From positions 39,352 through 103,351 of IMG/VR virus record IMGVR_UViG_3300020221_000005: DNA of 64,000 bases, one strand, 5' to 3'. Each line of letters opens with the position of its first letter. The first letter of the stretch is position 1. The notes beneath the pieces are model-generated. The model saw nothing but the letters and a program-made list of their open reading frames with translations. It ran no database searches and was not told the DNA's origin. This DNA comes from a virus. This document shows, in pieces, positions 37,965 to 59,813 of the stretch. The translations under genes were made by a program, and so were the position numbers.

Positions 37965-38735
37965 ATGTCGCACATAAGTTTAATTAATCTTATAAAAGAA
38001 ACCAGATTGGCATCTAACCCTAAAGATCTGGAAAAAAATTCTGATAGATTAGAAACTTCTATAAATTTTCTTAAAAGCAAAAATAAAGTGTTGATTTTAG
38101 CCACGTCAAATCGATGGGAAGGGCACAAAGATGACGAAGCGAAATCTACGGTTTTAGCTAAAATTGTTCATGATAGATTGGGGTCTGATAAATCCACATT
38201 TATTGATGTTTCTAAATTAAATATTTTTGTTTGCGAAGGAAATGTTTCTACAAAGTGGGGTAACAATTGTGGGGTCAAAGAATCGATTTTAAAAGATAAA
38301 GATAAAAATCCTACTGGACAATTAAGATGCTGGGCTAGTGTTAATAATAAATCAGATGAGCTTTGGAAAATTTCAAAGGTGTTATTTGAGAGCGACTGCA
38401 TTCTTTTTTTCACTTCAATTCGGTGGGGGCAAACTAACAGCATATATCAAAAATTAATAGAGAGATTGACGTGGTTAGAAAATCGACACACTACGTTAGG
38501 CGAGTCTAATATATTAAAAGATAAAGATGCGGGTATGATTGCTATAGGTCAAAACTGGAACGGTAGTCGGGTAATAGATACTCAAAAAGATATTTTTAAT
38601 CATTTCGGATTTAATGTTCCTGCGGAAATTTCTTGGAACTGGCAGTATACGGAAGATAAATATGATGAAACTAAAAATTCATATAAAAAAGCAATAACTA
38701 CATTTAATGACACGTTTAAATCGCATGAAAAATAA
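37965..38735 (+). CDS. flavodoxin-fold protein (NADPH-dependent FMN reductase / iron-sulfur flavoprotein-like)
   Basis: ILATSNR...STVLA, LNIFVCEG...C...RCW, DELWKISKVLFESDCILFFTSIRWG...QKLIERL, LKDKDAGMI. Confidence 0.78.
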   Translation: MSHISLINLIKETRLASNPKDLEKNSDRLETSINFLKSKNKVLILATSNRWEGHKDDEAKSTVLAKIVHDRLGSDKSTFIDVSKLNIFVCEGNVSTKWGNNCGVKESILKDKDKNPTGQLRCWASVNNKSDELWKISKVLFESDCILFFTSIRWGQTNSIYQKLIERLTWLENRHTTLGESNILKDKDAGMIAIGQNWNGSRVIDTQKDIFNHFGFNVPAEISWNWQYTEDKYDETKNSYKKAITTFNDTFKSHEK

Positions 38736-41583
38736 ATACTATGAAATTTTAAAATCTGAAATTGATGAAATAGTTGAAGAATACATACAACATATTTTGT
38801 CAGAAAGTTTAGACGTTAGTATTAAACATTTAAATAAAGAAATAGACACAATTCAAAAAGCGTCTAACTTTATCAGTAAAAAGTTACATGTAGAAGAAAA
38901 AATAGATGGTACAAAACTAATTTTAGTAAGAAAAAATACAGATTCTTCAAATTATTCGGATAATTGGATTGTATCTTATAAAGGAAATATTTTGCATCCT
39001 GAAGAATTTGAACATTTTAATGAGAAGGATATAAAAGACATAAGTTCTAAATCTATAGGTATTTCTCAGTATAAAAATGTTTTTGAAAAGCTTAAAAAAA
39101 TAAATGATAAAATTTCTTTGGTTCCAAAAAATACTGCGTTTAGTTTAGAATTTGCTCAAAATAAAGACACATTGACTCGAACATATGTAACTACTCAAGC
39201 TTTATTTTTACGGTCTTTTGCGAATGTAAAATATTATGTAAATGACGGATTTTTGACTATTTCTAGTACAAGCGGAGAAATTACAGATTTTAATAGTATA
39301 AATGATATGGCTCGAATACTGGATATCTATACTTTTCCGGTAATTTTAGACGGATATATTAATACTAGAGAAAATTTTATTTCTGCAATAAAGTCTGATG
39401 AACTTCTTGGTATTTTTAATAAAACCGAAATAAATTTCGACGATTCTCTTGATATAATTTCTAAATTTTCTAAAATGATGGTATCGTTTTCATCTAAGTT
39501 AGGCGGAAAGCCAGAAGGCGTGGTGATACATACTTCAGATAATAAATTATATAAAGTTACACAGTCGGATCAATACGATTTAACCGTTAGGAGTAATAAA
39601 AAATTATCATCTCAGATGGATGCTGAATCTGAAAAAGAATATCAAAATAAAATTTCTGAACTTGCAAGGGGATTTGTAGATAGACTTGATTTTAGTAATT
39701 CGGTTGAAAATTTATTAAAAACGTATAATGATTTTATTAAAAAAGTTGATTTAGAAAAAATACACCATTCTAAAAAATCTCGTATAAATAAGATCGACGA
39801 TCTCATGTTAGCGGGAAAGTTTTTAATACAGAGATACGTTTTTTCTGGAAGAAATACAAAAACTTTGGGATTGGTTCCAATGGCAGCAAAACCTGTACAT
39901 TTGGGCCATTGGAAGTTAATACAACTCGCGTCGAAAGAAAATAATAATGTGATTGTTTATATTAGCGAAAAAGATCGTATCAAAAAAGGAGAGTATCCTA
40001 TAACAGGAAATCAAATGATACAGATATGGAATGAAATCTTAAAACGATATCTGCCAAATAATGTAAAAATAAAATTTGTAGACAGTCCTGTTTCTGCGGT
40101 TCGTTATATGCTTTTAGATTTAGATAAAGAATTTAATGAATCGCCTATCGTGAACATATATTCCGACATAGACGACATAAATTCATATAACTCAGAAGAA
40201 TTCAAATCAAAATATAAAAATTTATTTGGTTTAAATAAAATTAAATTAAGAGGGATAGAACGTTCTCACACGGTTGATATAAGTGGAACAAAAATGCGTG
40301 AATTTTTACAAAATGATGATAAACTTTCATTTACTAAAAATTTGCCCGATATTTCTGATTTAGACAAAGAGAAAATATATAACTTAATAAAAAATATTTC
40401 AAGATCAAAAACTTTGAACGAAAGTGGTCAATCGATTGCATCGATTGATCCTAAGACTCCTAAAACAGTTAACGGCAAAACTGCTAGAGCTGATAAAAAA
40501 CTCAATATTTCTGGTGGAAATAGAACAATTATTTCTGACCATATAAGAGATTTAGCTATTACCTTAAATAAACATATAAATTTTTGGAATCCAAACAATC
40601 CATATATTAAAAGCGGTTATATCTTTAATGGAAGTTCACAGCATCTAATGAATCCTGATGTGGATGATATATTAAGGAAAAAAACCGGCGATCCTGACAT
40701 TTCTTTGGAAAAAATAAAATCTGATTACGGTGATATAGATATTATTGTTCCTATAACTAAACTAGATGAACTTAAGAAATTTTTAGACACAAAGGATGAT
40801 AATAAAAGTGAATGGGAACCTGGATCAGAAAATAAAATAACCGACCAATTTTTTTATGTCGGTAGAACAAAGAGTGCCGCAGCAATACCTGATCAATTAG
40901 TTACTATTTTTTGGTACAAACCAAATAATCAAATTGTTCAGGTTGATTTCGAGGGAGACAATATGGTTAAAGATCAGCAAGGTTATGAGAAACCTTCTGA
41001 ATGGACTAAATTTTCAAAAGATTCTCCATTAGATGATTTGGCTAAAGGAATTAAAGGATTGGCAGGCGCAATTTTATTACGGTCATTAGCTAGAGGAACT
41101 ACCAGATTAGAAAATGTAATAGTTCTGACTCCCGGCGGAGTCAAAAAATATAAAGAAAAAAAAGAAATAACAGACAGGGAAATTTCTAAAAATAAAAGAG
41201 ACTCTATTCCATCTGAATATACTCTAAATACAGGCGGCGGAGGTGCAGGAATAAGAAAAGCTTATAACTATGTTGGAAAAATAAATAATAAAGATGCTTA
41301 TGAGTTTGTAGAAGCGCGAACGGCAAAAGATATGGGAGAAAAATTTGTATCAATTACAAATTTATCAAAAATATTTGAAATAATTTTTAAAAAATCTCCC
41401 ACATCGGATGACTTAAATAACTTTAGAAGTTTTCAGGGTCTTTTAAAAATGATGCGAGATAACTTAGACAAAAAAACTATAAATATTGTATTGAACAGAT
41501 TCGTGGAGATTATAAAAACCGAAAATATTTCTTCTACTGAAAAATCTGCTATAGAAGACATGATTAAATCTACTTTAACATAA
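38725..41583 (+). CDS. multidomain protein: RNA/ATP-ligase-like domain, HxGH cytidylyltransferase-like domain and Pol-beta-type nucleotidyltransferase (start probably ATG 38725)
   Basis: EEKIDG/FSLEF/PEGVVIH/LYKV; AAKPVHLGHW...ISGTKMREF; NGSS...YGDIDII...QVDFE. Confidence 0.75.
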   Translation: MKNKYYEILKSEIDEIVEEYIQHILSESLDVSIKHLNKEIDTIQKASNFISKKLHVEEKIDGTKLILVRKNTDSSNYSDNWIVSYKGNILHPEEFEHFNEKDIKDISSKSIGISQYKNVFEKLKKINDKISLVPKNTAFSLEFAQNKDTLTRTYVTTQALFLRSFANVKYYVNDGFLTISSTSGEITDFNSINDMARILDIYTFPVILDGYINTRENFISAIKSDELLGIFNKTEINFDDSLDIISKFSKMMVSFSSKLGGKPEGVVIHTSDNKLYKVTQSDQYDLTVRSNKKLSSQMDAESEKEYQNKISELARGFVDRLDFSNSVENLLKTYNDFIKKVDLEKIHHSKKSRINKIDDLMLAGKFLIQRYVFSGRNTKTLGLVPMAAKPVHLGHWKLIQLASKENNNVIVYISEKDRIKKGEYPITGNQMIQIWNEILKRYLPNNVKIKFVDSPVSAVRYMLLDLDKEFNESPIVNIYSDIDDINSYNSEEFKSKYKNLFGLNKIKLRGIERSHTVDISGTKMREFLQNDDKLSFTKNLPDISDLDKEKIYNLIKNISRSKTLNESGQSIASIDPKTPKTVNGKTARADKKLNISGGNRTIISDHIRDLAITLNKHINFWNPNNPYIKSGYIFNGSSQHLMNPDVDDILRKKTGDPDISLEKIKSDYGDIDIIVPITKLDELKKFLDTKDDNKSEWEPGSENKITDQFFYVGRTKSAAAIPDQLVTIFWYKPNNQIVQVDFEGDNMVKDQQGYEKPSEWTKFSKDSPLDDLAKGIKGLAGAILLRSLARGTTRLENVIVLTPGGVKKYKEKKEITDREISKNKRDSIPSEYTLNTGGGGAGIRKAYNYVGKINNKDAYEFVEARTAKDMGEKFVSITNLSKIFEIIFKKSPTSDDLNNFRSFQGLLKMMRDNLDKKTINIVLNRFVEIIKTENISSTEKSAIEDMIKSTLT

Positions 41584-41648
41584 TAAAATGTAGTGAGTTT
41601 TATTTTTTTTAAGAAAATTCATTATATATATCAACGGTTATTTAAATT

Positions 41649-42248
41649 ATGAAGCGTGCAAAAAATAAAAGTAATATTGATATTATAAAAGGTTATTTAT
41701 CCGGAGAAAGGCCATTTGTTCAAGTGGGATATAATTCTGATATGTCAGAAAGAAAAGAAGGTGAGACTTGGACAGATGCTGGAGGTAAATGTTGGATTTA
41801 TAAAAACGGAAGAAAACGGCGGATAAATACTCCGCAGAAAATAAATCCTGATATTATTAGATTGCGTTGTAAAGACTGTGATATGGATATGAAGTGGGGT
41901 AATTATTTGGACGACAAAATCTTTCCAAAAACAGGAAGATGTTACGATTGTAATATAAAATTTGAAACAAAATTAAAATTAGAAAATAAGTTTGAAGATT
42001 ATGAAAAAATAAAAGTTTTTAACAATCAAAAAAGTTTTTGCTTAGATTTAAAATCTAAATTAGAAGAGACTATAAAATATTTAGAAACCGCATCAAATGA
42101 TATTGTTTATTTAAATGAAGATGGTAGTAAAGAAATTTGGAAAGATACTACTAAAGAAAAAGTATTATCTGATGCTAAAAATGATTATAAGGAGTGTTTA
42201 GACGCACTAGATAGAATTGAAAATCAACTTAAAGCTTTAAATGGGTGA
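41649..42248 (+). CDS. hypothetical Zn-ribbon protein upstream of terminase
   Basis: CKDC...CYDC; overlaps the terminase start. Confidence 0.7.
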   Translation: MKRAKNKSNIDIIKGYLSGERPFVQVGYNSDMSERKEGETWTDAGGKCWIYKNGRKRRINTPQKINPDIIRLRCKDCDMDMKWGNYLDDKIFPKTGRCYDCNIKFETKLKLENKFEDYEKIKVFNNQKSFCLDLKSKLEETIKYLETASNDIVYLNEDGSKEIWKDTTKEKVLSDAKNDYKECLDALDRIENQLKALNG

Positions 42249-43857
42249 AACGAAACCAAATTTAAGAGAGATAATAAAGGAGGAATACAAACGATGTTTG
42301 TCTGATCCACTTTATTTCATGAGAAAATATGTAAAAATTCAACATCCGTTAAGAGGAACTCTTCCGTTTGATTTATTTCCGTTCCAAGAAGATGCTTTAA
42401 AAGGATTAATAAATAATAACTATAATATAATTTTAAAGTCAAGACAGATGGGTATTACTACTCTTACGTCAGCCTATGCTTTATGGTTAATGCTGTTTCA
42501 CAGTGATAAAAACATTTTGTGTATTAGTATAAAACAAGAAACGGCAAAAGAAATAATAACGCGAGTTAGATTTGCTAATAATAATTTGCCGTCTTGGTTA
42601 AAGGTTCAATGTATAGAAGATAATCGTTTATCTTTAAGATTGAAAAATGGTTCGCAAATAAAAGCCGTGTCTTCTTCAGGAGATGCGGGTCGTTCGTCGG
42701 CTCTTTCTTTATTAATAATAGATGAAGCCGCATATATAGATAATATAGAAGAAATTTGGCTATCTGCACAGCCAACTCTTTCTACCGGCGGTCGAGCAAT
42801 TTTACTGAGCACCCCAAATGGCGTAGGAAACTTTTTTCATAAAACGTGGGTCGGCGCAGAATCAAAACAGAACGAATTTAATACAATAAAATTACCATGG
42901 CAGCTTCATCCAGAACGTGACCAGTCTTGGAGAAACAAACAAACAGAATTGTCCGGAATAAAAGGTTCAGCTCAAGAATGCGACTGTGATTTTACTACTA
43001 CAGGTCATACAGTAATTGATACTGACACATTAAAGTGGGTCCAAGAAAAATGCATAAGAGACCCTTTGGAAAAAAGATTCGCCAATCAATCTTTGTGGAT
43101 TTGGGAATATCCTAATTATAGTAAACAATACATAGTGTGCGCAGATGTGGCTAGAGGCGATGGGGGTGACTATTCCGCATTTCATGTTTTAGAAATAAAT
43201 GATTTAAAACAAGTAGCAGAATTTAAAGGCTCGGTTGATACAAAAACGTATGGAAATATACTGGTGAGTGTGGCTAACGAATTTAACCGAGCAATACTTG
43301 TTATAGAAAATAATAGTTATGGTTGGGCTACCATTCAACAAGTTATAGATTTACAATATCCTAACACGTTTTATAGCAGCGCAGATTTATTATACGTCGA
43401 TTTAGAAAAACAGATGAATAATAAAATAAATCGTGCTGAAAAAAATATGGTTCCAGGATTTACTACAACAAATAAAACTCGTCCGCTTATAATTTCAAAA
43501 TTGGAATCTTACTTTAGAGAAAGATCAATAATAACAAATTCGGTGAGATTATATGAAGAGTTATCAGTATTCATTTGGAATGGAAGTAAACCAGAGGCAA
43601 TGGGTGGTTACAATGATGATTTAGTTACAAGCTTGGGGATGGGACTGTGGGTGAGAGATACCGCTTTGAGATTACAAACTCAAAGTGGAGAATATACTAA
43701 AAACTTAATCGATGCAATTAGTAGAACCGGTGGAGGATCTGCAATTTATACTTCAAAGACACAAGAATCAGAAAATTATTGGAGTATGCCGCTTCCTTCT
43801 CAAGGAAATAATAACGGAATTAATAAACAAAGAGAAGATTTAAAGTGGTTATTATAA
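42241..43857 (+). CDS. gp17: terminase large subunit (T4 gp17-like)
   Basis: LFPFQ, KSRQMGITT (Walker A), LLIIDEAA (Walker B), STPNG, nuclease ADVARG...DYSAF...NDDLV. Confidence 0.95.
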   Translation: MGETKPNLREIIKEEYKRCLSDPLYFMRKYVKIQHPLRGTLPFDLFPFQEDALKGLINNNYNIILKSRQMGITTLTSAYALWLMLFHSDKNILCISIKQETAKEIITRVRFANNNLPSWLKVQCIEDNRLSLRLKNGSQIKAVSSSGDAGRSSALSLLIIDEAAYIDNIEEIWLSAQPTLSTGGRAILLSTPNGVGNFFHKTWVGAESKQNEFNTIKLPWQLHPERDQSWRNKQTELSGIKGSAQECDCDFTTTGHTVIDTDTLKWVQEKCIRDPLEKRFANQSLWIWEYPNYSKQYIVCADVARGDGGDYSAFHVLEINDLKQVAEFKGSVDTKTYGNILVSVANEFNRAILVIENNSYGWATIQQVIDLQYPNTFYSSADLLYVDLEKQMNNKINRAEKNMVPGFTTTNKTRPLIISKLESYFRERSIITNSVRLYEELSVFIWNGSKPEAMGGYNDDLVTSLGMGLWVRDTALRLQTQSGEYTKNLIDAISRTGGGSAIYTSKTQESENYWSMPLPSQGNNNGINKQREDLKWLL

Positions 43858-43887
43858 TTCTTTTTAACTATTTATTTTTATAAAAAT

Positions 43888-45822
43888 ATGGATTCGAACG
43901 ACGCCAAAAAACCAATAGATTTAAAATCAAAAAGTCTTTTTGCAAAATTAAAAAGGTTGTTTTCCACGGATGTAGTGGTAAGAAATGTTGGTGGAAAAAT
44001 GTTAAAGATAAAGGATACTGATCAGATTCAGTATGCCACCGATAGAAATACTCTCAGAGATAGATTTAATAGAATACGTACTTCTGGCTATAGTCAATAT
44101 AGTCGTGATTTTACGATGGCGTATCAGTCGTCTAGAATAGAATTATTCCGCGATTATGATGTTATGGATATGGATCCAATAATATCATCCGCACTTGATA
44201 TTTACGCAGATGAGTGTCTTACGCAAAATGAAATGGGTTATGTTCTTAATGTAAAGGCCGATGATAATAATGTTAAAAGAATACTAGAAAATCTGTATTA
44301 TGATATTCTTAACATAGAATTCAATTTATGGAGTTGGACACGAAATATGTGTAAATATGGAGATTTTTATTTAAAATTACACATTAGTCCTGAATATGGA
44401 ATTTATTTGGTTGAACCGTTATCCGCATACAATGTTTCTCGTGTAGAAAATAGTGATCCGATGAACAAAAATTACATCAAATATCAAGTTAACTTTGAAA
44501 GTGGTGTAATGGAAGAGTTAGAAAATTATCAAGTGGCACATTTTAGATTATTATCTGATAGTAATTTTCTTCCATATGGCAAATCTATGGTTGAAGGATC
44601 TAGACGTGTTTGGAAACAATTAAGTTTAATGGAAGATGCGATGTTAATACATCGTATTATGCGGGCTCCTGAAAAAAGAGTATTTAAAATTGACGTAGGA
44701 AATATACCTCCCGGAGAAATTGATAATTTTATGGAACGTACCATGAATAAAATGAAAAAGGTTCCTTATATAGATGAAAAAACCGGCGATTATAATCTCA
44801 GATTTAATTTACAAAACATGGTGGAAGATTTTTATTTGCCTGTTCGTGGTGGAGATAGTGGAACTGATATTCAACCTTTATCCGGCATGGAATTTACCGG
44901 TACGGATGATATTGAGTATTTAAGAAATAAAATGATGGCCGCTTTAAAAATTCCCAAAGCTTTTTTGGGATATGAAGAAGATCTATCTGGAAAAGCCACA
45001 TTAGCGGCTGAAGACGTTAGATTTGGTCGAACCATTCACCGTATTCAAAAAATATTGATTAGCGAATTGACAAAGCTCGGCGTAGTTCATTTATACTCTC
45101 AAGGATTTACTGATGAAAATTTGGTTAATTTTAGCTTAGAATTAACAAATCCATCAACTATCTTTGAAAAAGAAAAAATTGATATTTGGGGAAATAAAGT
45201 GACGGTGGCCAAAGATATGATGGAAAATAAATTGTTTTCTAAAGATTGGATATATAAAAATATTTTTAATATGTCGGATGAGGACGTATTGAATACAAAT
45301 AGCGAAGTTGTAGAAGATGCCAAACAGAGTTGGAGGTTTAAACAAATAGAAGAAGAAGGTAATGACCCCGCATCTTCTTTACAAAAAATAAATAAAGATG
45401 GAGAATCGGAAGACGCGGGCGGTGGTTCTGATGAAACTTCTAGCGAAACTTCTAGCGAAACCCCTAGCGAAACCCCTAGCGAAACCCCTAGCGAAACCCC
45501 TAGCGAAACCCCTAGCGAACCTGCTAGCGCAGCTCCGCCATTAGCCGAAAAAACAGATCGACCTTCTCAAAAAGGGAAAAAAGACGCAAGAAATTACCCA
45601 TTTGGAGAAGATCCGCTGGGAAGATTAGAGAATCGAGCCGATTATCGTAAAAATCCGATTTCCCATAAATATAAAAATCAATCACCGTTAGGGTTTGAAT
45701 CTTTAAATTTAGGTAAATTATCAGATTTTTTGGCTAAAGATGATAAAAAAGAAAAATTGAAAGAATCTTCAAAAGTTAAATCTTTATTAGATGAGAATAA
45801 TATAATAGATAATTTAAAATAA
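43888..45822 (+). CDS. gp20: portal protein (T4 gp20-like)
   Basis: LMEDAMLIHRIMRAPEKRVFKIDVGN, EDFYLPVRGG, DIEYLRNKMMAALKIP. Confidence 0.95.
   Translation: MDSNDAKKPIDLKSKSLFAKLKRLFSTDVVVRNVGGKMLKIKDTDQIQYATDRNTLRDRFNRIRTSGYSQYSRDFTMAYQSSRIELFRDYDVMDMDPIISSALDIYADECLTQNEMGYVLNVKADDNNVKRILENLYYDILNIEFNLWSWTRNMCKYGDFYLKLHISPEYGIYLVEPLSAYNVSRVENSDPMNKNYIKYQVNFESGVMEELENYQVAHFRLLSDSNFLPYGKSMVEGSRRVWKQLSLMEDAMLIHRIMRAPEKRVFKIDVGNIPPGEIDNFMERTMNKMKKVPYIDEKTGDYNLRFNLQNMVEDFYLPVRGGDSGTDIQPLSGMEFTGTDDIEYLRNKMMAALKIPKAFLGYEEDLSGKATLAAEDVRFGRTIHRIQKILISELTKLGVVHLYSQGFTDENLVNFSLELTNPSTIFEKEKIDIWGNKVTVAKDMMENKLFSKDWIYKNIFNMSDEDVLNTNSEVVEDAKQSWRFKQIEEEGNDPASSLQKINKDGESEDAGGGSDETSSETSSETPSETPSETPSETPSETPSEPASAAPPLAEKTDRPSQKGKKDARNYPFGEDPLGRLENRADYRKNPISHKYKNQSPLGFESLNLGKLSDFLAKDDKKEKLKESSKVKSLLDENNIIDNLK
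45433..45528 (+). repeat. 12-bp tandem repeat x8 (gaaacccctagc; ETPS) in the portal C-terminal tail
   Basis: Directly visible. Confidence 0.92.
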
Positions 45823-45886
45823 ATACACTATAAATGTGTTTTTTTTAAAAGACTAATATATTTATAAACTAAAGTAGTTAGATAAT

Positions 45887-46753
45887 ATGCATAAATCTAA
45901 ACATTCTAAATTCAAAAATACAGGTATATTATTTGAATTATTAACACGGCAAATTACTGCGGATATTTTGGCAGGAAAAGATGAGTCTAAAGCAAAGGAT
46001 ATTTTGTTCAAATATTTTAAAGAACACACTCAGTTAGGAAAGGAATGGCAACTTTATAATTTTTTAGTAAATGAACAATTTTTAGATGATACAAAAGCGG
46101 ATAGAGCAATTTCTGTGGTTTTAAAATCAAGAGAAAAAATAAATAACAAAAAATTAATTCAAGAAAAATACGAACTGATAAAAGAAATAAAAGATACCTA
46201 CCCAATTGATAAATTTTTAAAGTCAGGAATAAAAAATTATAAAATATACGCGTCTATTTATAAAGTTTTTGAAAGTCACGTTGGAAATATTTCTTTTAGA
46301 GCCGATGAAATATTTCAAGCAAAAAATTGTTTGATTGAGAGTCTTGTCTCCGTTAAAAACTCAGTTGAATCTAAAGAAGATTCATTGCTCAGTCGATATA
46401 AAAAAGAAAGTGAAGAAGTTAGATTATTAGCCTATAAGTTTTTAATAGAAAATCTAAATAAAAAATATAGTGCATTAGATGATAATCAAAAAAATATATT
46501 AAAAGAATATATTAATGGAATTTCAACCGCAGGCTCTATAACCCACTTTATACTTGAAGAAAAAAATAAAGTTAAATCCGAACTTTCTTATTTGATTGAA
46601 AAGATAGATTCTCAAGTCATAAAAATTAAAATAAATGAAGTGTTAAATCAATTATCTAAAATAAACACTGATAAAGGCGTGCGAGATAATCATGTAATGG
46701 TATTGCTTCTCTCTCACGAATTAGTTAAAGAAATAAAAAATCATATAACATGA
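45887..46753 (+). CDS. head-region protein of unknown function
   Basis: KHSKFKNTGILFELL N-terminus; late motif at 45859; between portal and protease. Confidence 0.75.
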   Translation: MHKSKHSKFKNTGILFELLTRQITADILAGKDESKAKDILFKYFKEHTQLGKEWQLYNFLVNEQFLDDTKADRAISVVLKSREKINNKKLIQEKYELIKEIKDTYPIDKFLKSGIKNYKIYASIYKVFESHVGNISFRADEIFQAKNCLIESLVSVKNSVESKEDSLLSRYKKESEEVRLLAYKFLIENLNKKYSALDDNQKNILKEYINGISTAGSITHFILEEKNKVKSELSYLIEKIDSQVIKIKINEVLNQLSKINTDKGVRDNHVMVLLLSHELVKEIKNHIT

Positions 46754-47562
46754 GTAAATTAAAAAACATCATAAAAGAACTTACCAAAGAAATAATGGAT
46801 GAAATGTCCACTACGGGAGGCGTGGCCGGCTATTCTACACCTTTTGCTTTTAGTAAAGGTGGAAAAAATAAAGCTACTAAAGCTATGGAAAAGTTGGGAT
46901 TTAAAACTGTAGAAGAAAAAATGGATCCGGTTGGAAAAGAGGATAGCGATATTAATAATGATGGAAAAGTGAATAAACAAGATAAATATCTTTTAAATCG
47001 TAGAAAAAAAATCGGTCACGCAATTGCACGTAGAAACAGCGGTAGGTTAGATGAAGAAACGGTTGATATTTCTGCGACAATTATAGACCCCCTTAAAAAA
47101 ACAGCGGAAACTTTAGATAAAGAACAAAAAACTAAGCTAGAAGCTAAATTAAAAGAGTTTGAGACTCAGTTACAACAAAAAATTTCTGGAAAAATTATAA
47201 ATTTTAAAGGTAAAAAGGGTGACCCTTATCAATCAGTAAAAGATTATCGCGTAAGACTATCACCGTATGCAGCAACTCCGATTGAAATTGAAAACTGGCC
47301 AAGTAAAAATAATCCTTTAAATTTTCAAATAAAAATTATAGGAAAGCAAATTTCAGATACTGGAAAGGAATTCGGCGTCGAGTCAGGATTTTTTATAGAT
47401 TTTTCTCTTCCGAATTCATTTTCAATTGGAGATGCAGCTCAACCGGCTGCTCAACCAGCTGCTCAACCGGCTGCTCAACCAGCTGCTCAACCGGCTGCTC
47501 AACCAGCTGCTCAACCAGCTGCTCAACCAGCAAATACTCTTGATGGACAAGTTGCCAGATAA
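46750..47562 (+). CDS. putative prohead core/internal protein
   Basis: MSKLKNIIKELTKEIMDE leader, EMSTTGGVAGYSTPFAF, EF-hand-like DINNDGKVNKQD, AAQP repeats. Confidence 0.65.
   Translation: MSKLKNIIKELTKEIMDEMSTTGGVAGYSTPFAFSKGGKNKATKAMEKLGFKTVEEKMDPVGKEDSDINNDGKVNKQDKYLLNRRKKIGHAIARRNSGRLDEETVDISATIIDPLKKTAETLDKEQKTKLEAKLKEFETQLQQKISGKIINFKGKKGDPYQSVKDYRVRLSPYAATPIEIENWPSKNNPLNFQIKIIGKQISDTGKEFGVESGFFIDFSLPNSFSIGDAAQPAAQPAAQPAAQPAAQPAAQPAAQPAAQPANTLDGQVAR
47434..47529 (+). repeat. 12-bp tandem repeat x8 (gctgctcaacc[ag]; AAQP)
   Basis: Directly visible. Confidence 0.92.
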
Positions 47563-47566
47563 AATT

Positions 47567-48181
47567 ATGAATAAACAATTATTAACAAATTGTATTCCTT
47601 TTCAAACAGTAAAAACTACGCTGAATGAATCTACGTCGGTAGCAGGAAAAATGGTGGTCTCAGGAATTTTACAAAGAGCCAATGCAAAAAATCAAAATGG
47701 TAGAATTTATCCATTAGATGTTCTTAAACGAGAGGTTGAAAAGTATAATCAAACTTTTGTAAAAGAAAAACGTGCGGTAGGAGAACTTGATCATCCAGAT
47801 AGTGAAGTTGTAAATCTTAAAAATGTTTCTCATAATATTACTAAAACTTGGTGGGACAATAACGATTTAATGGGTGAAGTGGAAATTTTAACTACTCCGA
47901 GTGGAAATATTTTAAAAGAACTATTAAAGTGTGGAATTACCGTTGGAATTTCCAGCCGAGGATCAGGTTCGGTAAAAAAAGTAAATGAAAGTACTGTTGA
48001 AGTCAACGATGACTTCTCACTAATAGCTTTTGACTTTGTTAGCAATCCTTCGACTGTTGGAGCTTTTATGTTACCCGAGTCTCCTTTGAATGAATCTGTA
48101 AAAATTTTACAAAATCCCATTACTAACAAATGGGAAACTGTGGAAAAAATAATACGTGATATTATTAACGAAATAAAATAA
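47567..48181 (+). CDS. gp21: prohead core protease (T4 gp21-like); true start ATG 47567
   Basis: NQNGRIYP, GELDHP, VSHNIT, ILTTPSG, GISSRGSGS, FDFVSNPS. Confidence 0.94.
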   Translation: MNKQLLTNCIPFQTVKTTLNESTSVAGKMVVSGILQRANAKNQNGRIYPLDVLKREVEKYNQTFVKEKRAVGELDHPDSEVVNLKNVSHNITKTWWDNNDLMGEVEILTTPSGNILKELLKCGITVGISSRGSGSVKKVNESTVEVNDDFSLIAFDFVSNPSTVGAFMLPESPLNESVKILQNPITNKWETVEKIIRDIINEIK

Positions 48182-49956: not shown

Positions 49957-50571
49957 ATGCCCGCAAAAAGTGAAAAACAAGCTAGATTTTTTAGGTTGGT
50001 AAAAGGCGTTCAGTCAGGAAATGTATCGCCTTCTAAAGTGTCAAAAAATGTTAAAAACGTAGCTAACACTATGAGTAAAAAAAGCGTAAATGATTTTACC
50101 AAACTAAAAGAATATATAAAAAAACAAGTATCAGAGATTATTTGTGAAATAGATAATCCTGTGGTGAAAAATGTGGAAGCGGTTGACAATTTTGACGAAT
50201 TCGTTTCTCGTCCTGAAAATCAAGGTGTAAATTTTACTGACGACGAGTTGTCGGCGGTTGATACTATTTCTAATAAACCCGACGAAAAAACTCCTAATAA
50301 AATTAGTTACAATTCTACAGAAACAACTACAGGTAATAATAAACAATTGATTGTAATTAAAAAAGCCACTCCAAAAAAGGTATATATAGCGATTTGTTGC
50401 CCAAATAGATCTCCGGTGAATATAAGTGATACCGATTCGTCAAAATCTGATTCAAAAAATAAAAAAGATAAAATAATTATTAAGATAAGTAAAAATTATG
50501 AAGATTCAGAGAATTGCTCGGTTCTTTATAATTTTATAAATTATATAATTAAAGAATATAATATAACGTGA
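49957..50571 (+). CDS. hypothetical head-region protein (MPAKSEKQARFF N-terminus)
   Basis: Late motif at 49928; basic N-terminal motif followed by KLKEYIKKQVSEIICE. Confidence 0.72.
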   Translation: MPAKSEKQARFFRLVKGVQSGNVSPSKVSKNVKNVANTMSKKSVNDFTKLKEYIKKQVSEIICEIDNPVVKNVEAVDNFDEFVSRPENQGVNFTDDELSAVDTISNKPDEKTPNKISYNSTETTTGNNKQLIVIKKATPKKVYIAICCPNRSPVNISDTDSSKSDSKNKKDKIIIKISKNYEDSENCSVLYNFINYIIKEYNIT

Positions 50572-50885: not shown

Positions 50886-50897
50886 CTATTTATAATC

Positions 50898-51311
50898 ATG
50901 ATACAGTTAAAAAATTTATTGCCTGAAAACACTCAAGCTCCACAACCACAAGAAAATCAAAGTGGTGTTTCGGAAACTTCTTCCAAATTGACCATCGAAC
51001 AAAAAAGAAAATTATCGGAGATGGTATCCCGATATAATGAATATGGAAAAATACTTTATCGTGAGAAAAAAATAACGGAGATTGCTCAGAATTTACAAGA
51101 AATCTCCGATTTAGCAGAAAACTATGCTTTAAATGAATGTGGTGATTGGTTTGAGGAGAATATAGTTAAAAGAAACTTTCAAGAAATGAAAAAATATTGT
51201 GAACAGTTTGGAAAATTAGCAAAAGAAACTCAATCCAAACAACATCAAATGGAAGCTCTATACGAAGATATGGGACATATCTTAGAGAGATATTTTGAAA
51301 TTAAAGGTTAA
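50898..51311 (+). CDS. helical head-region protein
   Basis: MIQLKNLLPE leader; ALYEDMGHILERYFEI C-terminus; late motif at 50887. Confidence 0.75.
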   Translation: MIQLKNLLPENTQAPQPQENQSGVSETSSKLTIEQKRKLSEMVSRYNEYGKILYREKKITEIAQNLQEISDLAENYALNECGDWFEENIVKRNFQEMKKYCEQFGKLAKETQSKQHQMEALYEDMGHILERYFEIKG

Positions 51312-53079: not shown

Positions 53080-53165
53080 AATATCTCCTATATCTACATA
53101 TAGTATACATATTGTTACGTTAATAAAATAATTTAATTTTTTTTGTTTTTTATTTATTTTATTTA

Positions 53166-53173
53166 TATTTATA
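53166..53173 (+). promoter_or_regulatory. late promoter motif TATTTATA for the scaffold-capsid operon (representative of about 17 copies)
   Basis: The same motif or a 1-nt variant lies upstream of late genes at 306, 3642, 6602, 9599, 13093, 19832, 21595, 30076, 35077, 43869, 45859, 49928, 50887, 58017, 60116 and 63020. Confidence 0.75.
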
Positions 53174-53328
53174 GTCAATGGGTGTGGAACCATCCTAAAT
53201 AAACTAAGTAGAAATTGTCTACAGTAGTTCCTGTTTAAATACAATATCTTCATATATTGTTGAATGAAATTTAACTTCAATTGAAGTTCAACAATAACTT
53301 CATAAAAATTAAAAACATAAATTAAAAT

Positions 53329-54492
53329 TATGACAAGTGAACTCTTAAAAGAGGCAATTGCTGACGCCAAGGCCGTCCGTGCAACTGCCATTGCAAATGC
53401 AAAACTCGCATTGGAAGAAGCCTTTACTCCAAGATTACAATCCATGTTAGGGCAAAAACTTCGTGAAGAACTTGATGAGAACGAATTGGAAGAATCCTCT
53501 GATGATACGACTGAAAATATCACTTCGGAAGAAGTTGATGAAATGTTAAAAGAGCTTGATGTGGAGAAAGCAGATGAAAATGCCGCCCCTGCTGCTACCG
53601 TTGCTGCAGATCCTACTGCCGCTCCTGTTGCTGCCGATCCTGCTGCCGCTCCTGCTGCTGCCGCTCCTGCTGCTGCCGCTCCTGCTGCTGCCGCTCCTGC
53701 TGTTGCCGATCCTGCTGCTGCCGCTCCTGCTGCCGCTCCTGCTGTTGTCGCTCCTGCTGTTGCCGCTCCTGCTGCCGATCCTGCTGCCGATCCTGCTGCC
53801 GCTCCTGCTGTTGCCGCTCCTGCTGTTGCCGCTCCTGCTGCCGATCCTGCTGCCGATCCTGCTGCCGCTCCTGCTATTGATTCCAAGACTGTTTCTGAAA
53901 GCGACGATTCGGATGAGGTTGATTTAGAGGAACTTCTCGCTGAAATAAATGAGATGGACGTCGACAGTATGACTGAGGAAGACGACGGCATGACTGAGGA
54001 AAACGACAGTATGACTGAGGTTGATTTAGATGAACTTCTCGCTGAACTAAATAAAGAGGGAGACACAGAACACGATGAAGACGATGATACTAAAACCTCA
54101 GAAGCCGTTAAATCTGAATTAAATGAGGCTTTGAAAACCGTAGAGTTTTTAAAAACTCAGTTAAATGAAGTGAATTTGTTGAATGCGAAATTGCTTTATA
54201 CCAATAAATTATTTAAAGCACATGCATTAGACAACAACCAAAAAATGAAGATTATTGAAGCGTTTGATTTGACCAAGTCCGTCCGTGAAGTCAAATTGAC
54301 CTACAATAATTTGTCTGAAGCATTGAATCTTAGCAAAGTGAAGACTGCTCCTAAGAAGTCTCCGATTGCTGAAGGCTTCGCATCAAATACAACTGGAACA
54401 ACCAAGCCCGTTCAGGCAGAGAAATCTGTCATTTCGGAGTCGGTTAACGGACAGGTTTCGAGATTCCAAAAACTCGCTGGAATTAAGAAATA
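53329..54492 (+). CDS. prohead core scaffolding protein (gp22-position), acidic with Ala-Pro linker (ORF track 53330..54493)
   Basis: LLKEAIADAKAVRATAIANAKLALEEAFTP, LNEVNLLNAKLLYTNKLF, RFQKLAGI; immediately upstream of the major capsid gene. Confidence 0.8.
53583..53875 (+). repeat. mosaic gct/gcc/cct/gat repeats encoding AAP/AADP
   Basis: Directly visible GC-rich low-complexity tract. Confidence 0.9.
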
Positions 54493-54532
54493 AAAAAATT
54501 TGCGTAAAAAACAGTAAAACAAAAACAAAAAT

Positions 54533-56194
54533 ATGAGTGATATTAAAGAATTGTTAACTAACAATACGAATCCTATGAGCCGCCTCTTGGAGGAGACTCG
54601 TGGATTACAAGGCAAGTGGGAAAAAACCGGCTTGCTCGAGGGGTTGGCTGGTACCGAAAAGGCTCAAATGTCTGTATTGCTTGAGAACCAAGCACAGCAG
54701 TTGATCAAAGAGGCTACCTCAACCGGAACTAGCGCAAACAGTGAACAGTGGGCAGGCGTAGCTCTTCCGCTCGTTCGCCGTGTGTTCGCTGAAATCGCTG
54801 CGAAGGAATTCGTAAGCGTTCAACCAATGAATCTTCCAAGTGGACTTATCTTTTACTTGGATTTCAAATATGGTAATACTAAATCAGGAGTCACGAGTGG
54901 AGATAGTCTATTCGGCGGAACTTTAAAGAAACTTGGTTCTACTGACAGTGCCGTTAATGGTTTGTATGGTGCCGGTCGTTTTGGATACACCATTAATCCT
55001 GTTTCTGTAGCAGCTACATTAAATACAGGCTCCACATCAGGTTTGACTGTCTGGGAAGCTTGTAATTTTGATGCAGACTTCAGCGCAAGTGCTGCTGCCG
55101 GAACTTATCAAAAATTCACAATTAACTTAGCTTCAAACTCTGATAATTTAGATTTGAACGCGATTAGAAGTTTCAACTTCTTCTCTGCTTCTGTAGATTG
55201 TGGAGTTTTGGATCAGTTCACAAAAGTTTACAATACTGGCTCTGCAACATCTCCATATTATGTAGTTACTGGAGTGGGATTAAGCAGCGTAATTGATCAC
55301 GCAGCTGGAGCTTACAGCGTAACTATTTCTGGAAGCAAACAGCCAACAGATTCTACTCGTGGTGACTTTGAAGATAAAAACAGCACCGGTGATAGCACCA
55401 CAGCTGTTGGTATTCCTGAGGTCAACCTTGAACTCAAGAGCGAACCGATCGTGGCTAAGACCCGCAAGTTAAAAGCAGTCTGGACTCCAGAGCTTGCTCA
55501 GGACTTGAATGCCTACCACAGCATTGATGCTGAGGCAGAATTGACTGCTCTCTTGAGTGAGTATGTTTCTATGGAAATCGATCTCGAAATCCTCGACATG
55601 CTGTTGGTTTCTGCTCCTGGAACAACCACCGAAGCTTGGAGTGCTAAAATTGGCGTAGAGTTTACCAAAACTCTCGATAGCGATGGTAATGCTTCATTTA
55701 CTCGCCTTGACGACAGTTCTCCAAACAGAACCGCCTATGTCAAGAGTTCTTGGTTCCAGACCCTCGGAAGCAAGATTCAACGTGTCTCTAACAAGATTCA
55801 TCAGTTGACTCTCCGTGGTGGAGCTAACTTCTTGGTTTGTTCTCCAGATGTCGCAACCGTCCTCGAATCAATTCCTGGATTCGTTGCTTCAACCGATGGT
55901 GATAGTGCTAAGTTCGCAATGGGTGTAAGCAAAGTTGGTAGCTTCGCAAGTCGCTTCCAGGTTTACAAGAACCCATACATGGTTGAAAACCAAATCTTGG
56001 TTGGATTCCGTGGAAGTAACTTCCTCGAAACTGGCGCAGTCTATTCGCCATATATTCCTCTCGTTCAGACACCACTCGTGTATGATCCAGTCAACTTCAC
56101 GCCACGCCGTGGGGTAATGACAAGATATGCGAAGAAAGTCGTTCGTCCGGAATTTTATGGTCGTATTCAGGTTGCTGACTTGAACCACGTCTAA
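54533..56194 (+). CDS. gp23: major capsid protein (T4 gp23-like)
   Basis: LLENQ, PLVRRVF, VSVQPMNLPSGLIF, AKTRKLKAVWTPELAQDLNAYHSIDAEAEL, YSPYIPL, PRRGVMTRYA; biased codon usage (TTC/AAC/ATC/CGT). Confidence 0.97.
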   Translation: MSDIKELLTNNTNPMSRLLEETRGLQGKWEKTGLLEGLAGTEKAQMSVLLENQAQQLIKEATSTGTSANSEQWAGVALPLVRRVFAEIAAKEFVSVQPMNLPSGLIFYLDFKYGNTKSGVTSGDSLFGGTLKKLGSTDSAVNGLYGAGRFGYTINPVSVAATLNTGSTSGLTVWEACNFDADFSASAAAGTYQKFTINLASNSDNLDLNAIRSFNFFSASVDCGVLDQFTKVYNTGSATSPYYVVTGVGLSSVIDHAAGAYSVTISGSKQPTDSTRGDFEDKNSTGDSTTAVGIPEVNLELKSEPIVAKTRKLKAVWTPELAQDLNAYHSIDAEAELTALLSEYVSMEIDLEILDMLLVSAPGTTTEAWSAKIGVEFTKTLDSDGNASFTRLDDSSPNRTAYVKSSWFQTLGSKIQRVSNKIHQLTLRGGANFLVCSPDVATVLESIPGFVASTDGDSAKFAMGVSKVGSFASRFQVYKNPYMVENQILVGFRGSNFLETGAVYSPYIPLVQTPLVYDPVNFTPRRGVMTRYAKKVVRPEFYGRIQVADLNHV

Positions 56195-56215
56195 TTCGTA
56201 GTTGATTAAACTCAA

Positions 56216-56259
56216 AAGAACCCTCCTTGAAGAAATTCTTGGAGGGTTCTTCTTTTTTT
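56216..56259 (+). terminator. intrinsic (probably bidirectional) terminator after the capsid gene
   Basis: AAGAACCCTCC...GGAGGGTTCTT stem plus T7 tract, A-run on the other side; between convergent genes. Confidence 0.88.
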
Positions 56260-56300
56260 GTGTAAAAACTTTCCTTATTTATTTCTGATTAAATAAATTT

Positions 56301-56495
56301 TTATTTTCTAAAACTTTTAATGATTATACTGATTGGAAGCCAAATTGGTACGGTTAAGACAGACCACTTGATAAAAAAGAATGCTAAATACACCAGCGCT
56401 GGGATACACAACCAATAATACATCCAAGGTTGGGAAAGGACTTCAATATCATACTTCCAAAGATTGAATAGAATTTCTATTATTTTATCGTTCAT
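56301..56495 (-). CDS. small membrane protein
   Basis: Trp/Pro-rich hydrophobic 64 aa; ATGA overlap with guaC. Confidence 0.7.
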   Translation of the reverse strand: MNDKIIEILFNLWKYDIEVLSQPWMYYWLCIPALVYLAFFFIKWSVLTVPIWLPISIIIKSFRK

Positions 56496-57484
56496 CTTGA
56501 TTTAGGAGGTAGACTGTTTTCTTTTATTTCAAATACCCCATTTCCTATAAAAGACTCTAATGTATTATATCCACTGTAGCTCACACAACTACTTATACCA
56601 CCCCACAATTCTTTTACAAGTTCTTTTAAAGGAACAATGTCGTCTTCTATTTTATATACCTTTCCCTCACTATGACGTTTGACTCCCCCAAATAGTTCTT
56701 GTTGTTTTTTACTAGCACCGCCCCAATAAGTTCCGTCTTTTATAATATGGGTTTCCGCTTCCGTTGCTTTTGAAAAAAATCCGCCCATCATAACATAATC
56801 AGCCCCAGCTCCAAACGCTTTTGAAGCATAATTTCCATTCTTGATGCCACCGTCGGCTATCAAATAAAAATTGTCAATTTTATGTTTGTCAATATATTCT
56901 TTACATTCAATAATTTCAGTTATTTGTCCACGATTCACTCCGGTTGCATCCGAAGTGCTGCAAGCGGATCCGCAAGCAATTCCCACTCTGAAATATACTT
57001 TAAATTGTTCTTTTAAGAGAGAGTTATAAATTTTAATTCCTTCTTTTGAGTGGATGTTTCCTATGATCAAATTTCTGATTGATGCTTCTGATTTAAGTTT
57101 TGATATAACGTCTAATATCTGTTTAGACATGTATCCATTTGCACAATCTATAATCCAATTGTAGGTATAATCTCTGAGTAGATGAACTCTGTCCCAGTCA
57201 TTTAAACCTATGCTTACATAGGTATTTTTATTATCATGCGTCGAACATTTGACCATTTCTATTTGAGTGACAATATCGCAGAATCTATGAATTCCAACCG
57301 ATAAACCAATGTCAGTAGCTTCTTTAATAAAAGACTTCCCTACTACCGCTGACATGGGGGACACAAAAATTCTATCTAAAGACATAGGAATATCTGCACG
57401 ACTTTTTAAGTCCAGATGTGTAGGTTGTGCAATCAAATTGCAATCATTATAATAAATTGATTTTGTATTTAAAATTGTTGGCAT
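56492..57484 (-). CDS. guaC: GMP reductase (IMPDH/GMPR family, no CBS domains)
   Basis: SPMSAV, IHRF, IDCANGY, IIGNI, RVGIACGSACST (catalytic Cys loop), IADGGIK, AFGAGADYVMMGG, SEGK. Confidence 0.8.
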   Translation of the reverse strand: MPTILNTKSIYYNDCNLIAQPTHLDLKSRADIPMSLDRIFVSPMSAVVGKSFIKEATDIGLSVGIHRFCDIVTQIEMVKCSTHDNKNTYVSIGLNDWDRVHLLRDYTYNWIIDCANGYMSKQILDVISKLKSEASIRNLIIGNIHSKEGIKIYNSLLKEQFKVYFRVGIACGSACSTSDATGVNRGQITEIIECKEYIDKHKIDNFYLIADGGIKNGNYASKAFGAGADYVMMGGFFSKATEAETHIIKDGTYWGGASKKQQELFGGVKRHSEGKVYKIEDDIVPLKELVKELWGGISSCVSYSGYNTLESFIGNGVFEIKENSLPPKSR

Positions 57485-57487
57485 AAA

Positions 57488-57961
57488 TTATTCAGTATAC
57501 TCGCAGATGTATGTGGTTATTGGAGTTTTATCGTAAATTGTATTAATCATTGTGGATACAATCTGCCAATTTCCTCCTGCTAATCCACATCCCATGTATT
57601 TTGGAAATCCAACTTTTTTTATATTTTTTTCTATACAATCTTTTTTCATAGAATCGATTGCAGTATATATGGCTTCATAATTTAAATTTCTTTCGTTAGA
57701 TCCATAGTAATACTGGCCATATAAATTATATACATATTTTATTGAAGAGTTTTCTTTAAATTTCTTAATTTCGGCCAAAGAAAACGTTCCTAATTTATTT
57801 TTATTTCCCGCGATTGTTTTTAAATCTGACTCATATGTTTCAGGCATTTTATTTTTTAATTGAAATGCAATTCCTCCGCCCATTGTACAAAAACAATTTG
57901 CACAATGTCCGATTGCGTCTACTTCGCATTTTAATAGATCACATTTTATATTAATTACCAT
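57488..57961 (-). CDS. macrodomain ADP-ribose-processing protein (Poa1p/phage type)
   Basis: DLL...AIGHCANCFCTMGGGIA...NLYGQ...FPKYMGCGLAGGNW. Confidence 0.88.
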   Translation of the reverse strand: MVINIKCDLLKCEVDAIGHCANCFCTMGGGIAFQLKNKMPETYESDLKTIAGNKNKLGTFSLAEIKKFKENSSIKYVYNLYGQYYYGSNERNLNYEAIYTAIDSMKKDCIEKNIKKVGFPKYMGCGLAGGNWQIVSTMINTIYDKTPITTYICEYTE

Positions 57962-57968
57962 CAATTTG

Positions 57969-57996
57969 ATGATATAGATAACTTAATAAAATTCAA
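57969..57996 (-). promoter_or_regulatory. sigma70-like promoter of the macro-guaC operon
   Basis: Minus strand TTGAAT(57996-57991)-N16-TATCAT(57974-57969), 7 nt before ATG 57961. Confidence 0.55.
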
Positions 57997-58027
57997 TATT
58001 TTATATTTGTTAAAACTATTTATTTAT

Positions 58028-58228
58028 ATGATTAAATTGCGTGAATTAGTTGAAAATGAAAAATCTGATTTAACCGTGATTGGACCTAATACTGTTAATG
58101 CTTCATTGGTAGCGATCGATTCTAAAACTAATGAAGAATCCAACTTTGTGATTTCTAATTTAACAAGGCAACCTTTAACTATTAAAGTTAAAGTAATTAA
58201 CGGTGCATATTTTGTTGATATAAAATAA
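58028..58228 (+). CDS. small protein with MIKLRELVE leader (true start ATG 58028)
   Basis: Late motif at 58017; leader shared with other late proteins. Confidence 0.65.
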   Translation: MIKLRELVENEKSDLTVIGPNTVNASLVAIDSKTNEESNFVISNLTRQPLTIKVKVINGAYFVDIK

Positions 58229-58232
58229 TTTT

Positions 58233-58835
58233 ATGAAACTTTTAGAAATTTTACATGATTTATTATTTCATGCGCCGATGAAACTTACAGGTGAAGATAT
58301 TGTGTCGGTTGAACTACAATATCATTTAAATAAAAAAATATCTCTAAGTGAAAATGTTTTTAGGACATATAGTGAAAAATATTTTCAACTAATAGAAGAA
58401 GTCAGAAGATTATATTTTGATAATAAAATAGAATTAAACGATGATGATGCTGAGTTGGTAGAGAGCGATTTGGGTAAAATGTCTATTTATGAAGGTCGAG
58501 AAGTTTATTTAGATGCTCCTATTGAAGAAGAAGAAGATACGTTGTTGGAAGCAAAACATCGTGGAAGAACAGTTAAATTAAATCGTCCGTTTAGAACTCC
58601 GGGTGGTCCAAAAAAATATTCGGTATATGTCACAAACAAAAAAGGAAACATTGTAAAAGTTTCTTTCGGAGATCCTAATTTAAGAGTTAGAGGTCGTAGC
58701 GCGGCAAGAAGAAAGAGTTTTGCCGCTCGGCATAAGTGCAGTCAGAAAAAAGATAGAACTACAGCGGGATATTGGAGTTGTCGCAGTCATAGAATTCGTT
58801 CTTTGGGAAACAAAGGTAAAGGAAAGTATTGGTGA
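58233..58835 (+). CDS. virion-associated protein with basic C-terminal domain (KKYSVYV...VSFGDP...RRKSFAARHKC...AGYWSC)
   Basis: Acidic N-part, LLE-A junction, then a highly basic domain of a type recalled from large DNA viruses. Confidence 0.7.
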   Translation: MKLLEILHDLLFHAPMKLTGEDIVSVELQYHLNKKISLSENVFRTYSEKYFQLIEEVRRLYFDNKIELNDDDAELVESDLGKMSIYEGREVYLDAPIEEEEDTLLEAKHRGRTVKLNRPFRTPGGPKKYSVYVTNKKGNIVKVSFGDPNLRVRGRSAARRKSFAARHKCSQKKDRTTAGYWSCRSHRIRSLGNKGKGKYW

Positions 58836-58836
58836 T

Positions 58837-59646
58837 ATGATTAAATTAAAAAATATTTTAAATAATAAAATTTTGAATGAAAGCATGACTTTATATGTTA
58901 AAGACACAAATTATCAAAGATTTGATAATTTGATGGATTTGTCTTTTCATTTACAAAGAATTGCTTATAAAATTTTAGAGTCTTTGCCAGAGGATCAAAT
59001 TAATTATTTTAGAAAAAACCGCCCAACCGAACTTTTGGTGGTTGATGGCCAAAGCAATATAGACAGTTCCGTTGGAACGTTGAATTTATATTATAGTGGA
59101 TATACAAATTCAACACTCAAAAAAATGTTGAGAGAAATATTGGCGGAACTTAAAAAATTAAATATTGAACATGGAAAACTTAAATTGGAAGATAGTAACT
59201 CTTACAAATATAAAGTAGTGAGAATTCCAATTGTTAAAAATGAACACAAATATACAGGAGCTCCCGAGGTGAATTTTTCAAATCGAAACGCTTACCATAT
59301 ATATAAAAACATACTTCAATTTGAACCTGATGATGACACCAACAGCGGTTTTAGTTTTACTGCCGACGAACTTAAACGAAGAGTAGAATCGGTTTTAAAA
59401 TATGATCCCGATTGGATTTCCAAACATACAATTTCAAAACATGATAGTTCTATACCTGATGTAGAACAAGACACTCAAAAAGATTTTGAAAATCCTCATG
59501 ATGAATTTTCTAAAAAAATAGCTGGTAATGCTAGAATTATAAATATGGGATTGAGTGAATCGGATATTAAACAAAGACTTTATTCTATTTTAGATGTGGC
59601 TAATTGGGCTATAAAAAATAATAAAAAAGAGTTATATGTCGCATAA
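58837..59646 (+). CDS. hypothetical protein with MIKLKNIL...ILNE leader (true start ATG 58837)
   Basis: ATG 1 nt after the upstream TGA; leader motif. Confidence 0.72.
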   Translation: MIKLKNILNNKILNESMTLYVKDTNYQRFDNLMDLSFHLQRIAYKILESLPEDQINYFRKNRPTELLVVDGQSNIDSSVGTLNLYYSGYTNSTLKKMLREILAELKKLNIEHGKLKLEDSNSYKYKVVRIPIVKNEHKYTGAPEVNFSNRNAYHIYKNILQFEPDDDTNSGFSFTADELKRRVESVLKYDPDWISKHTISKHDSSIPDVEQDTQKDFENPHDEFSKKIAGNARIINMGLSESDIKQRLYSILDVANWAIKNNKKELYVA

Positions 59647-59813
59647 TGTTTCTCTTTTAAATTTAATTTTTGAATTAAAATTGTTGACAGACTCGGAAAT
59701 CTAATTTTAAAAAAGATACGTTAATTTAAAACCGTGAAGATGGGTATTTTATATATTTGTATATATAAAAATAATTTTTAGTTTAACCGAGTCTGATAAA
59801 TTATATAAACTAT

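Follow-up and report, generated by a model that had tools for sequence, protein, structure and literature searches.

Phage T4 marks several of its head proteins with short N-terminal peptides. Its internal proteins (IPs) carry a capsid-targeting sequence (CTS) of about 10 residues (PMC8442874), the prohead protease gp21 removes a 10-residue N-terminal peptide from gp24 (PMC9958956), and the CTS and the short propeptides that gp21 removes are described for IPII, IPIII, Alt and gp24 (Mullaney and Black 1996, cited by PMC8442874, PMC5694885 and PMC9958956). At the polymorphic internal-protein loci of T-even phages, diverse IPs have the conserved CTS as their sole common part (PMC3012670). Propeptides of phages phiKZ, 201phi2-1 and SPN3US are cut by gp175/gp245 at S/A/G-x-E and are thought to guide proteins into the prohead, and paralogues in this set have identical N-termini (PMC5694885). 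Here we describe a leader peptide of comparable design in a large, uncultured T4-like phage from water, of the 'Far-T4' group, known from IMG/VR record IMGVR_UViG_3300020221_000005, and in its relatives: an amphipathic N-terminus of about 10 residues with the consensus MIKLK(D/N)(I/L)LxE, found on proteins with otherwise unrelated bodies. The window analysed is a stretch of 64,000 nucleotides, bases 39352–103351 of this linear record (103,351 bp; 34% G+C; CheckV completeness about 34%), and feature coordinates are window positions unless marked 'genome' (full record) or 'record'.

An earlier, sequence-only reading of the window had pointed to a similar leader on unrelated proteins and to L-x-E as its protease signal. 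All of the N-termini it quoted are present at the starts it gave, but the bare signal does not hold up, as a plain [LIVMF]-x-E within the first 16 residues is no more frequent at N-termini (30 of 117 genes) than in internal windows (385 of 1572) of this genome. What sets the N-termini apart is spacing: the pattern h-x-x-h-h-x-E (h, hydrophobic residue) is about five-fold enriched there (10/117 versus 25/1572 internal windows; Fisher p = 7e-5). A fixed-register rule, requiring hydrophobic residues at positions 4, 7 and 8 and Glu at position 10 with the initiator Met counted as 1, gives 10 matches at offsets 0–4 in this genome where 1.3 are expected (p = 1.6e-6). Pooling seven related genomes or fragments, which comprise 1157 open reading frames (ORFs) called with a simple ORF caller of our own, yields 33 exact-register matches against 2.7 expected (p = 2e-24), with 18 more at offset +2. 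In the complete relative G008 (159.6 kb; 203 ORFs), 9 leaders are in exact register and offsets +1 and +2 have none, and overall only 4–8% of genes carry a leader. Orthologues aside, BLAST finds the bodies of the leader-bearing proteins in the related genomes to be mutually unrelated, so that the register enrichment and the unrelated bodies together uphold the idea of a shared leader and extend it beyond what was first seen. These statistics indicate that the leader is a real, statistically robust, clade-wide N-terminal tag. One match, in the large terminase (TerL), was rejected as a false positive; its residues form a conserved TerL helix.

The same rule recovers T4 head proteins that gp21 is known to clip, picking ipII and ipIII (MKTYQEFIAE), gp24 (MAKINELLRE) and alt (MELITELFDE, at the annotated start); the start of T4 IPI fails the exact rule. 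The gp24 peptide agrees with the Far-T4 consensus at M1, K3, L7, L8 and E10. Among phages without a Peptidase_S77 (gp21-family) protease, used as negative controls, SPO1 gives no rule match and phage K gives three against 0.8 expected, mutually unlike and with no consensus. A further T4 protein fits the rule: gp61.1, uncharacterized and 54 residues long (NC_000866, 18966–19130, minus strand), starts MKTFKEFIKE and may be an unrecognized head-packaged protein.

The resemblance to the T4 CTS extends to the presence of an S77 protease, the order of the head genes, a leader of about 10 residues in the same register and non-homologous carriers. In contrast to T4, the consensus is a different one, tagged families are many more and more varied, several of them enzyme-like, and leader length varies within a single family; the Far-T4 tag is also read from sequence alone. 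With the inner-body or ejection proteins of phiKZ, 201phi2-1 and SPN3US the system shares a gp21-related protease, which in those phages cleaves after Glu (PMC5694885), whereas propeptides of the phiKZ type are mostly longer than 100 residues with a small P3 residue (PMC5694885) and the leaders described here, 10–20 residues long, resemble those of T4 in their hydrophobic P3. Like the T-even IP loci, Far-T4 genomes contain clusters of leader genes with unrelated bodies, and DNA identity between two such genes is limited to the leader region; T4 IPI, however, has a known anti-restriction role, whereas the cargo here has no assigned function. A literature search with the leader peptides as strings returned no paper, and the Far-T4 paper is silent on leaders.

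To survey the distribution of the leader, we scanned IMG/VR with a degenerate DNA pattern encoding M-I-K-L-K-D/N-x-L-x-E, which is present in at least 120 loci and yields at least 125 distinct proteins. Among the matches listed (n = 133), the leader Met is the first ATG in its frame in 125, and an ORF of 60 residues or more follows in 130. In this same set, conservation drops sharply past Glu10, the residue directly after it (P1′) is Ser, Ala or Gly in 34% against a background of 19.5% (p = 1.4e-4), and synonymous codons vary at conserved leader residues (ATT/ATA, GAT/GAC, TTA/CTN and AAA/AAG), which argues for selection on the peptide. Peptidase_S77 is encoded on 13 of 23 long leader-bearing contigs. 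The sole leader-bearing contig rated complete that lacks it is G006 (207 kb, L171–L181; CheckV 100% complete); by BLAST synteny with the present phage, its entire tail-plus-head block falls off the contig ends. A Terminase_6C search was uninformative on the completeness of G006, as the TerL of the present phage itself escaped detection. Searching cultured phages by tblastn with a 22-residue leader peptide gave no match, the query being too short.

The strongest in silico support for a processing site comes from the junctions between leader and body. The protein at 58837..59646 (+) carries a 15-residue leader, MIKLKNILNNKILNE|S (58837–58881), followed by a body that starts at a conserved SMTLYV-type motif. 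In its leader-carrying homologues (most of 26), h-x-E precedes the conserved SM(T/S)-type body start; three longer family members have more sequence after the leader and stand outside this result. Across the family, leaders range from 10 to about 37 residues and belong either to the MIKLK class or to an MKKS...LKQLIEE class. The protein directly upstream (58233..58835, +) starts MKLLE and contains an internal site, DTLLE106|A107 (58536–58550), before a conserved basic C-terminal domain (phrog_7595); E106 and A107 are invariant in seven homologues whose N-terminal halves are divergent. A third case lies in the head module, where the protein at 49957..50571 (+) has an internal leader-like helix at residues 47–64 (50095–50148; QVSE|I, IICE|I). 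In relatives this type of helix is N-terminal, ending ...VREVLVE| in L006 and ...IREFLSE| in L007, directly before the shared ENPVVKN body. Together, the sequence and model data support a leader that is separable from its body at a fixed h-x-E junction.

Other leader-bearing genes of the window add to this pattern. A flavodoxin-like flavin mononucleotide (FMN) oxidoreductase (37965..38735, +) begins with the 12-residue leader MSHISLINLIKE (37965–38000), and 83 of its best 120 homologues start with the exact-register 10-residue leader. In an AlphaFold2 (AF2) model, the leader has a predicted local distance difference test (pLDDT) score of 47–52 and the body is confident, with Foldseek pointing to FMN reductases, azoreductases and NQO. 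In the head module, where T4 has gp67/gp68, the protein at 46750..47562 (+) has the leader MSKLKNIIKE (46750–46779); the site conserved in its orthologues is IMDE18|MSTTGG (through 46803), and gp072 of Flavobacterium phage immuto has an ...EEMSTTG motif too. The head-module protein at 50898..51311 (+), with CTATTTATA 2 nucleotides before the gene, comprises an exact 10-residue leader, MIQLKNLLPE (50898–50927), a variable low-complexity linker and a conserved body. Its leader is kept across phages whose proteases are 54–94% identical, whereas its linker is not, and the protein holds 11 h-x-E motifs against 4.8 in shuffled sequences (z = 3.5). In the tail or baseplate region, a 135-residue protein (9611..10018, +; TATTTATA upstream) has the 12-residue leader MNTETFKKMIKE|T, and its orthologue in G002 begins MNADQFKKLIRE|; the boundary of this leader is less clear because conservation runs beyond the Glu. 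For the genes at 37965, 46750, 50898, 58233 (with its internal TLLE|A), 58837 and 9611, the leaders initially proposed are thus conserved in homologues.

Three further proposals fared less well. The 66-residue ORF at 58028..58228 (+), preceded by CTATTTAT, does begin with a 9-residue variant, MIKLRELVE|N, and has no homologue in related loci. The start at 59636..59701 (+) exists and reads MSHNVSLLNLIFE, but the ORF has merely 21 codons before its translation meets stops; it may be the remnant of a leader-bearing gene, and the best local alignments with the gene at 37965 show no DNA-level similarity. The third, YIQHILSE, was assigned as the leader of a 958-residue protein that combines ligase-like, NMNAT-like and Pol-beta-type nucleotidyltransferase modules (38707..41583, +; modules by PHROG limits). 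It occupies residues 26–33 and is thus not N-terminal, and it has no supporting conservation, BLAST against relatives giving just a weak match to the NMNAT core. A lone TLNE|S at residues 569–572 (40411–40422), in the linker past the NMNAT-like module, is suggestive as a candidate site in this protein.

The candidate maturation sites of the head proteins themselves fit the leader junctions. The Peptidase_S77 prohead protease (47567..48181, +) is assigned by PF03420 (3.9e-30; 105 bits, with the cut-off at 27) and phrog_207 (1.9e-55), and a whole-genome search recovered it again. Related proteases are known to cleave themselves near the C-terminus. Candidate self-cleavage sites in the present protease are TLNE|S (residues 18–21, ending at 47629) together with MLPE|S and PLNE|S, which lie past the catalytic domain; h-x-E|[SG] sites are kept in eight relatives. 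The gp23-like major capsid protein (54533..56194, +; phrog_138, 4e-71) has a 60-residue N-terminal delta region ending QLIKE|A (54701–54712), kept as L-[IVL]-x-E|[ASG] in seven relatives. This site lies between ENQ and VRR motifs that are common with T4 gp23, where the propeptide end, FLTE65|A, is analogous in position and not column-identical. The sites proposed in the sequence-only reading for protease (TLNE|S, PLNE|S) and capsid protein (LIKE|A) are thus conserved as h-x-E|[SAG] in relatives. Just 5′ of the capsid gene, a putative gp22-like acidic scaffold of 387 residues (53330..54493, +), with an N-terminus (LLKEAIADAKAV) conserved in nine relatives, contains 23 h-x-E motifs against 9.4 in shuffled sequences (z = 5.4). 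The scaffold has no Pfam or PHROG match, and its similarity to T4 gp22 is weak and local only.

The occurrence of the leader on unrelated bodies in related genomes and the swap of leader class within the 58837 family support a portable element. Clusters of leader genes with unrelated bodies lie at 22–26 kb in G003, 117–122 kb in G004 and 12–17 kb in G008, and leaders fall into classes typified by MIKLKDLLxE, MKKSELKQLIRE and FDLKKFLVEN. Four different immuto proteins (record 1803, 103806, 117631 and 118632; L182–L189) start with a third class of leader, M(E)NFDLKKFLVENKLT... Beyond the window, the same record has further leader genes at genome 486 (minus strand), 10489, 11405 and 36955. Members of the genome-10489 family, only 38–68% identical overall, are near-identical over residues 1–12 (a single K/R change) and differ at four positions at most over residues 1–21. 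The genes at genome 10489 and 11405, otherwise different, share about 55 nucleotides of near-identical DNA (genome 10474–10530 and 11390–11446; L041) comprising the −10 region and the MKKSELKQLIREC codons, which suggests recent recombination at the leader.

Promoter motifs and protein families give further context for the leader genes. A late-type TATTTAT motif lies a few bases before the ATG of many structural genes, and in this genome it precedes five of seven leader genes against 17 of 110 others (p = 0.0025). Three of the four leader genes within the early-promoter region have it. Three relatives show the same bias (p = 0.008 in G008, 0.011 and 0.03). Most of 115 tagged proteins have no Pfam family, and Pfam and PHROG searches on leader-bearing bodies gave no family for most. 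Those tagged proteins that do have families include phage lysozymes, M23 and other cell-wall hydrolases, zeta-toxin-like kinases and an MPTase-PolyVal peptidase domain, types expected among virion-delivered proteins.

On this evidence, and by analogy with T4, we consider the leader to be probably a T4-type capsid-targeting propeptide that is removed by the S77 protease. Proteins bearing the M-I-K-L-K-D/N-I/L-L-x-E decapeptide, or its variants of 12 to 20 residues, would join the scaffold core of the assembling prohead, where the Peptidase_S77 protease would cleave past the Glu (h-x-E|, often before Ser, Ala or Gly). The same maturation step would trim the capsid protein, degrade the scaffold and process the protease itself; the mature bodies would remain in the head, and some at least would enter the host with the DNA. 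Targeting, cleavage, head retention, injection and cargo function are what we infer from these patterns, and the anti-defence or takeover role that the sequence-only reading gave to the cargo is conceivable on the same footing. A broader proposal can be put forward only tentatively: the decapeptide and its sister classes could form a clade-wide, sequence-readable address label for the proteins that abundant aquatic Far-T4 phages package in the head and probably inject, spanning many families (among them oxidoreductases, kinases, nucleotide-modifying enzymes and cell-wall hydrolases), with leaders and protease junctions as the points at which cargo is swapped or fused.

Several observations weigh against a capsid-targeting propeptide. 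The register rule alone yields about one to three chance matches per AT-rich genome, so it is their shared consensus that makes the Far-T4 matches convincing. Co-occurrence of S77 with the leader could stem from shared ancestry within one phage clade, and our literature search found no virion mass spectrometry or N-terminomics paper on this clade. The scaffold site LLKE|A, proposed alongside those of protease and capsid protein, is kept in the clade yet reads LLKQ in the cultured relative immuto. The expected enrichment of leaders in late over early genes is borne out by a TATTTAT bias in four of seven genomes; in the other three the bias is not significant, and the leader gene at genome 11405 sits behind an early sigma70-like promoter. 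Tagged bodies with NUDIX, HAD, ATP-grasp, exonuclease or flavodoxin-like character are not classic head cargo, and the P1′ residue is diverse overall.

The last three of these points, the early promoter, the many enzyme-like bodies and the varied P1′, would fit a tag for docking or regulation that has nothing to do with the capsid, one that could bind a common phage or host partner (a chaperone, complex or compartment) or act as a timing or degradation signal, and that need not be cleaved by the head protease. We regard such a tag as unlikely: head-module proteins in the places of gp67/gp68 carry the leader, its length and pattern are those of T4 propeptides, its invariant Glu junction agrees with the sites in the capsid protein and protease of these phages, and its genes are biased towards the late motif. 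Considerably less probable is that the shared start is a feature of the nucleic acid, either an A/T-rich 5′ coding region that aids translation of near-leaderless mRNA or a recombination cassette, and that the peptide is functionless. The position of the ATG only a few nucleotides past TATTTAT in several genes and the near-identical DNA at genome 10489 and 11405 would follow naturally from this; the free synonymous variation at conserved residues would not, nor would the restriction of the leader to a small share of genes, the hydrophobic spacing and Glu10 kept across distant phages, or the fact that leaders of different classes stop at the same protein junction. A conserved Cys in the class-B leader (LIREC) raises the further idea of a recognition handle for a modifying enzyme of the radical-SAM/SPASM type, which we rejected as highly improbable for want of a consistent partner gene: of 18 leader-bearing genomes, just 5 encode radical-SAM (PF04055), and it is absent from G000, G003, G004 and G006. 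Least credible of all is a resemblance produced by chance in an AT-rich proteome where K, I, L, N and E abound. The frequency of plain h-x-E inside proteins and the phage K matches might speak for chance, which is contradicted by the pooled exact-register counts with their single consensus, by the number of distinct IMG/VR proteins with the leader and by its conservation in orthologues.

The head module that surrounds several of these genes follows the T4 20-67-68-21-22-23 order. Among cultured phages, the capsid protein is closest to those of immuto, Microcystis phage Mel-JY01 and Rhodothermus phage RM378, which make up the Far-T4 group. TerL (42241–43857) is followed by a gp20-like portal (43888..45822, +; phrog_213, 2.6e-63) and a small conserved head-module protein at 45887; other small head-module proteins lie at 49957, 50607 and 50898. 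TerL starts here at a helix about 110 residues into T4 gp17, and its start is overlapped by a conserved ORF of 199 residues (41649–42248, +), which may be the small terminase or a split N-terminal part of TerL. Two HNH/homing-endonuclease-like genes interrupt the module, at 48256–49923 (+) and from 51301 to about 53000 (−). Relatives lack insertions at these sites: the L007 protease adjoins the 49957 orthologue, and the L004 orthologue of 50898 adjoins the scaffold gene. A minus-strand ORF of 921 codons, with a serine-rich start and a weak phrog_342 match, extends antisense into the scaffold gene (53000–54066); its N-terminal part is probably not real, because endonuclease-family matches are limited to the C-terminal 570 or so residues. 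Directly past the capsid gene, an IMPDH/GMP-reductase-like gene (56492–57484, −) and a Macro-domain gene (57488–57961, −) lie on the opposite strand. The record ends within a gene of collagen-like GT(D/N)GTSG repeats (63039–64000, +), and these repeats are the probable reason why the assembly stopped there.

Should the tag act like that of T4, a simple sequence rule would find proteins that environmental phages of a large, abundant group carry in the capsid and co-deliver with the DNA. Anti-defence and host-takeover factors belong to this class of proteins, for which recognition through homology is very difficult. The tag would also be available for packaging in a cultured Flavobacterium phage, ready for use, and would point out T4 gene 61.1 as an unstudied fit to the same rule.

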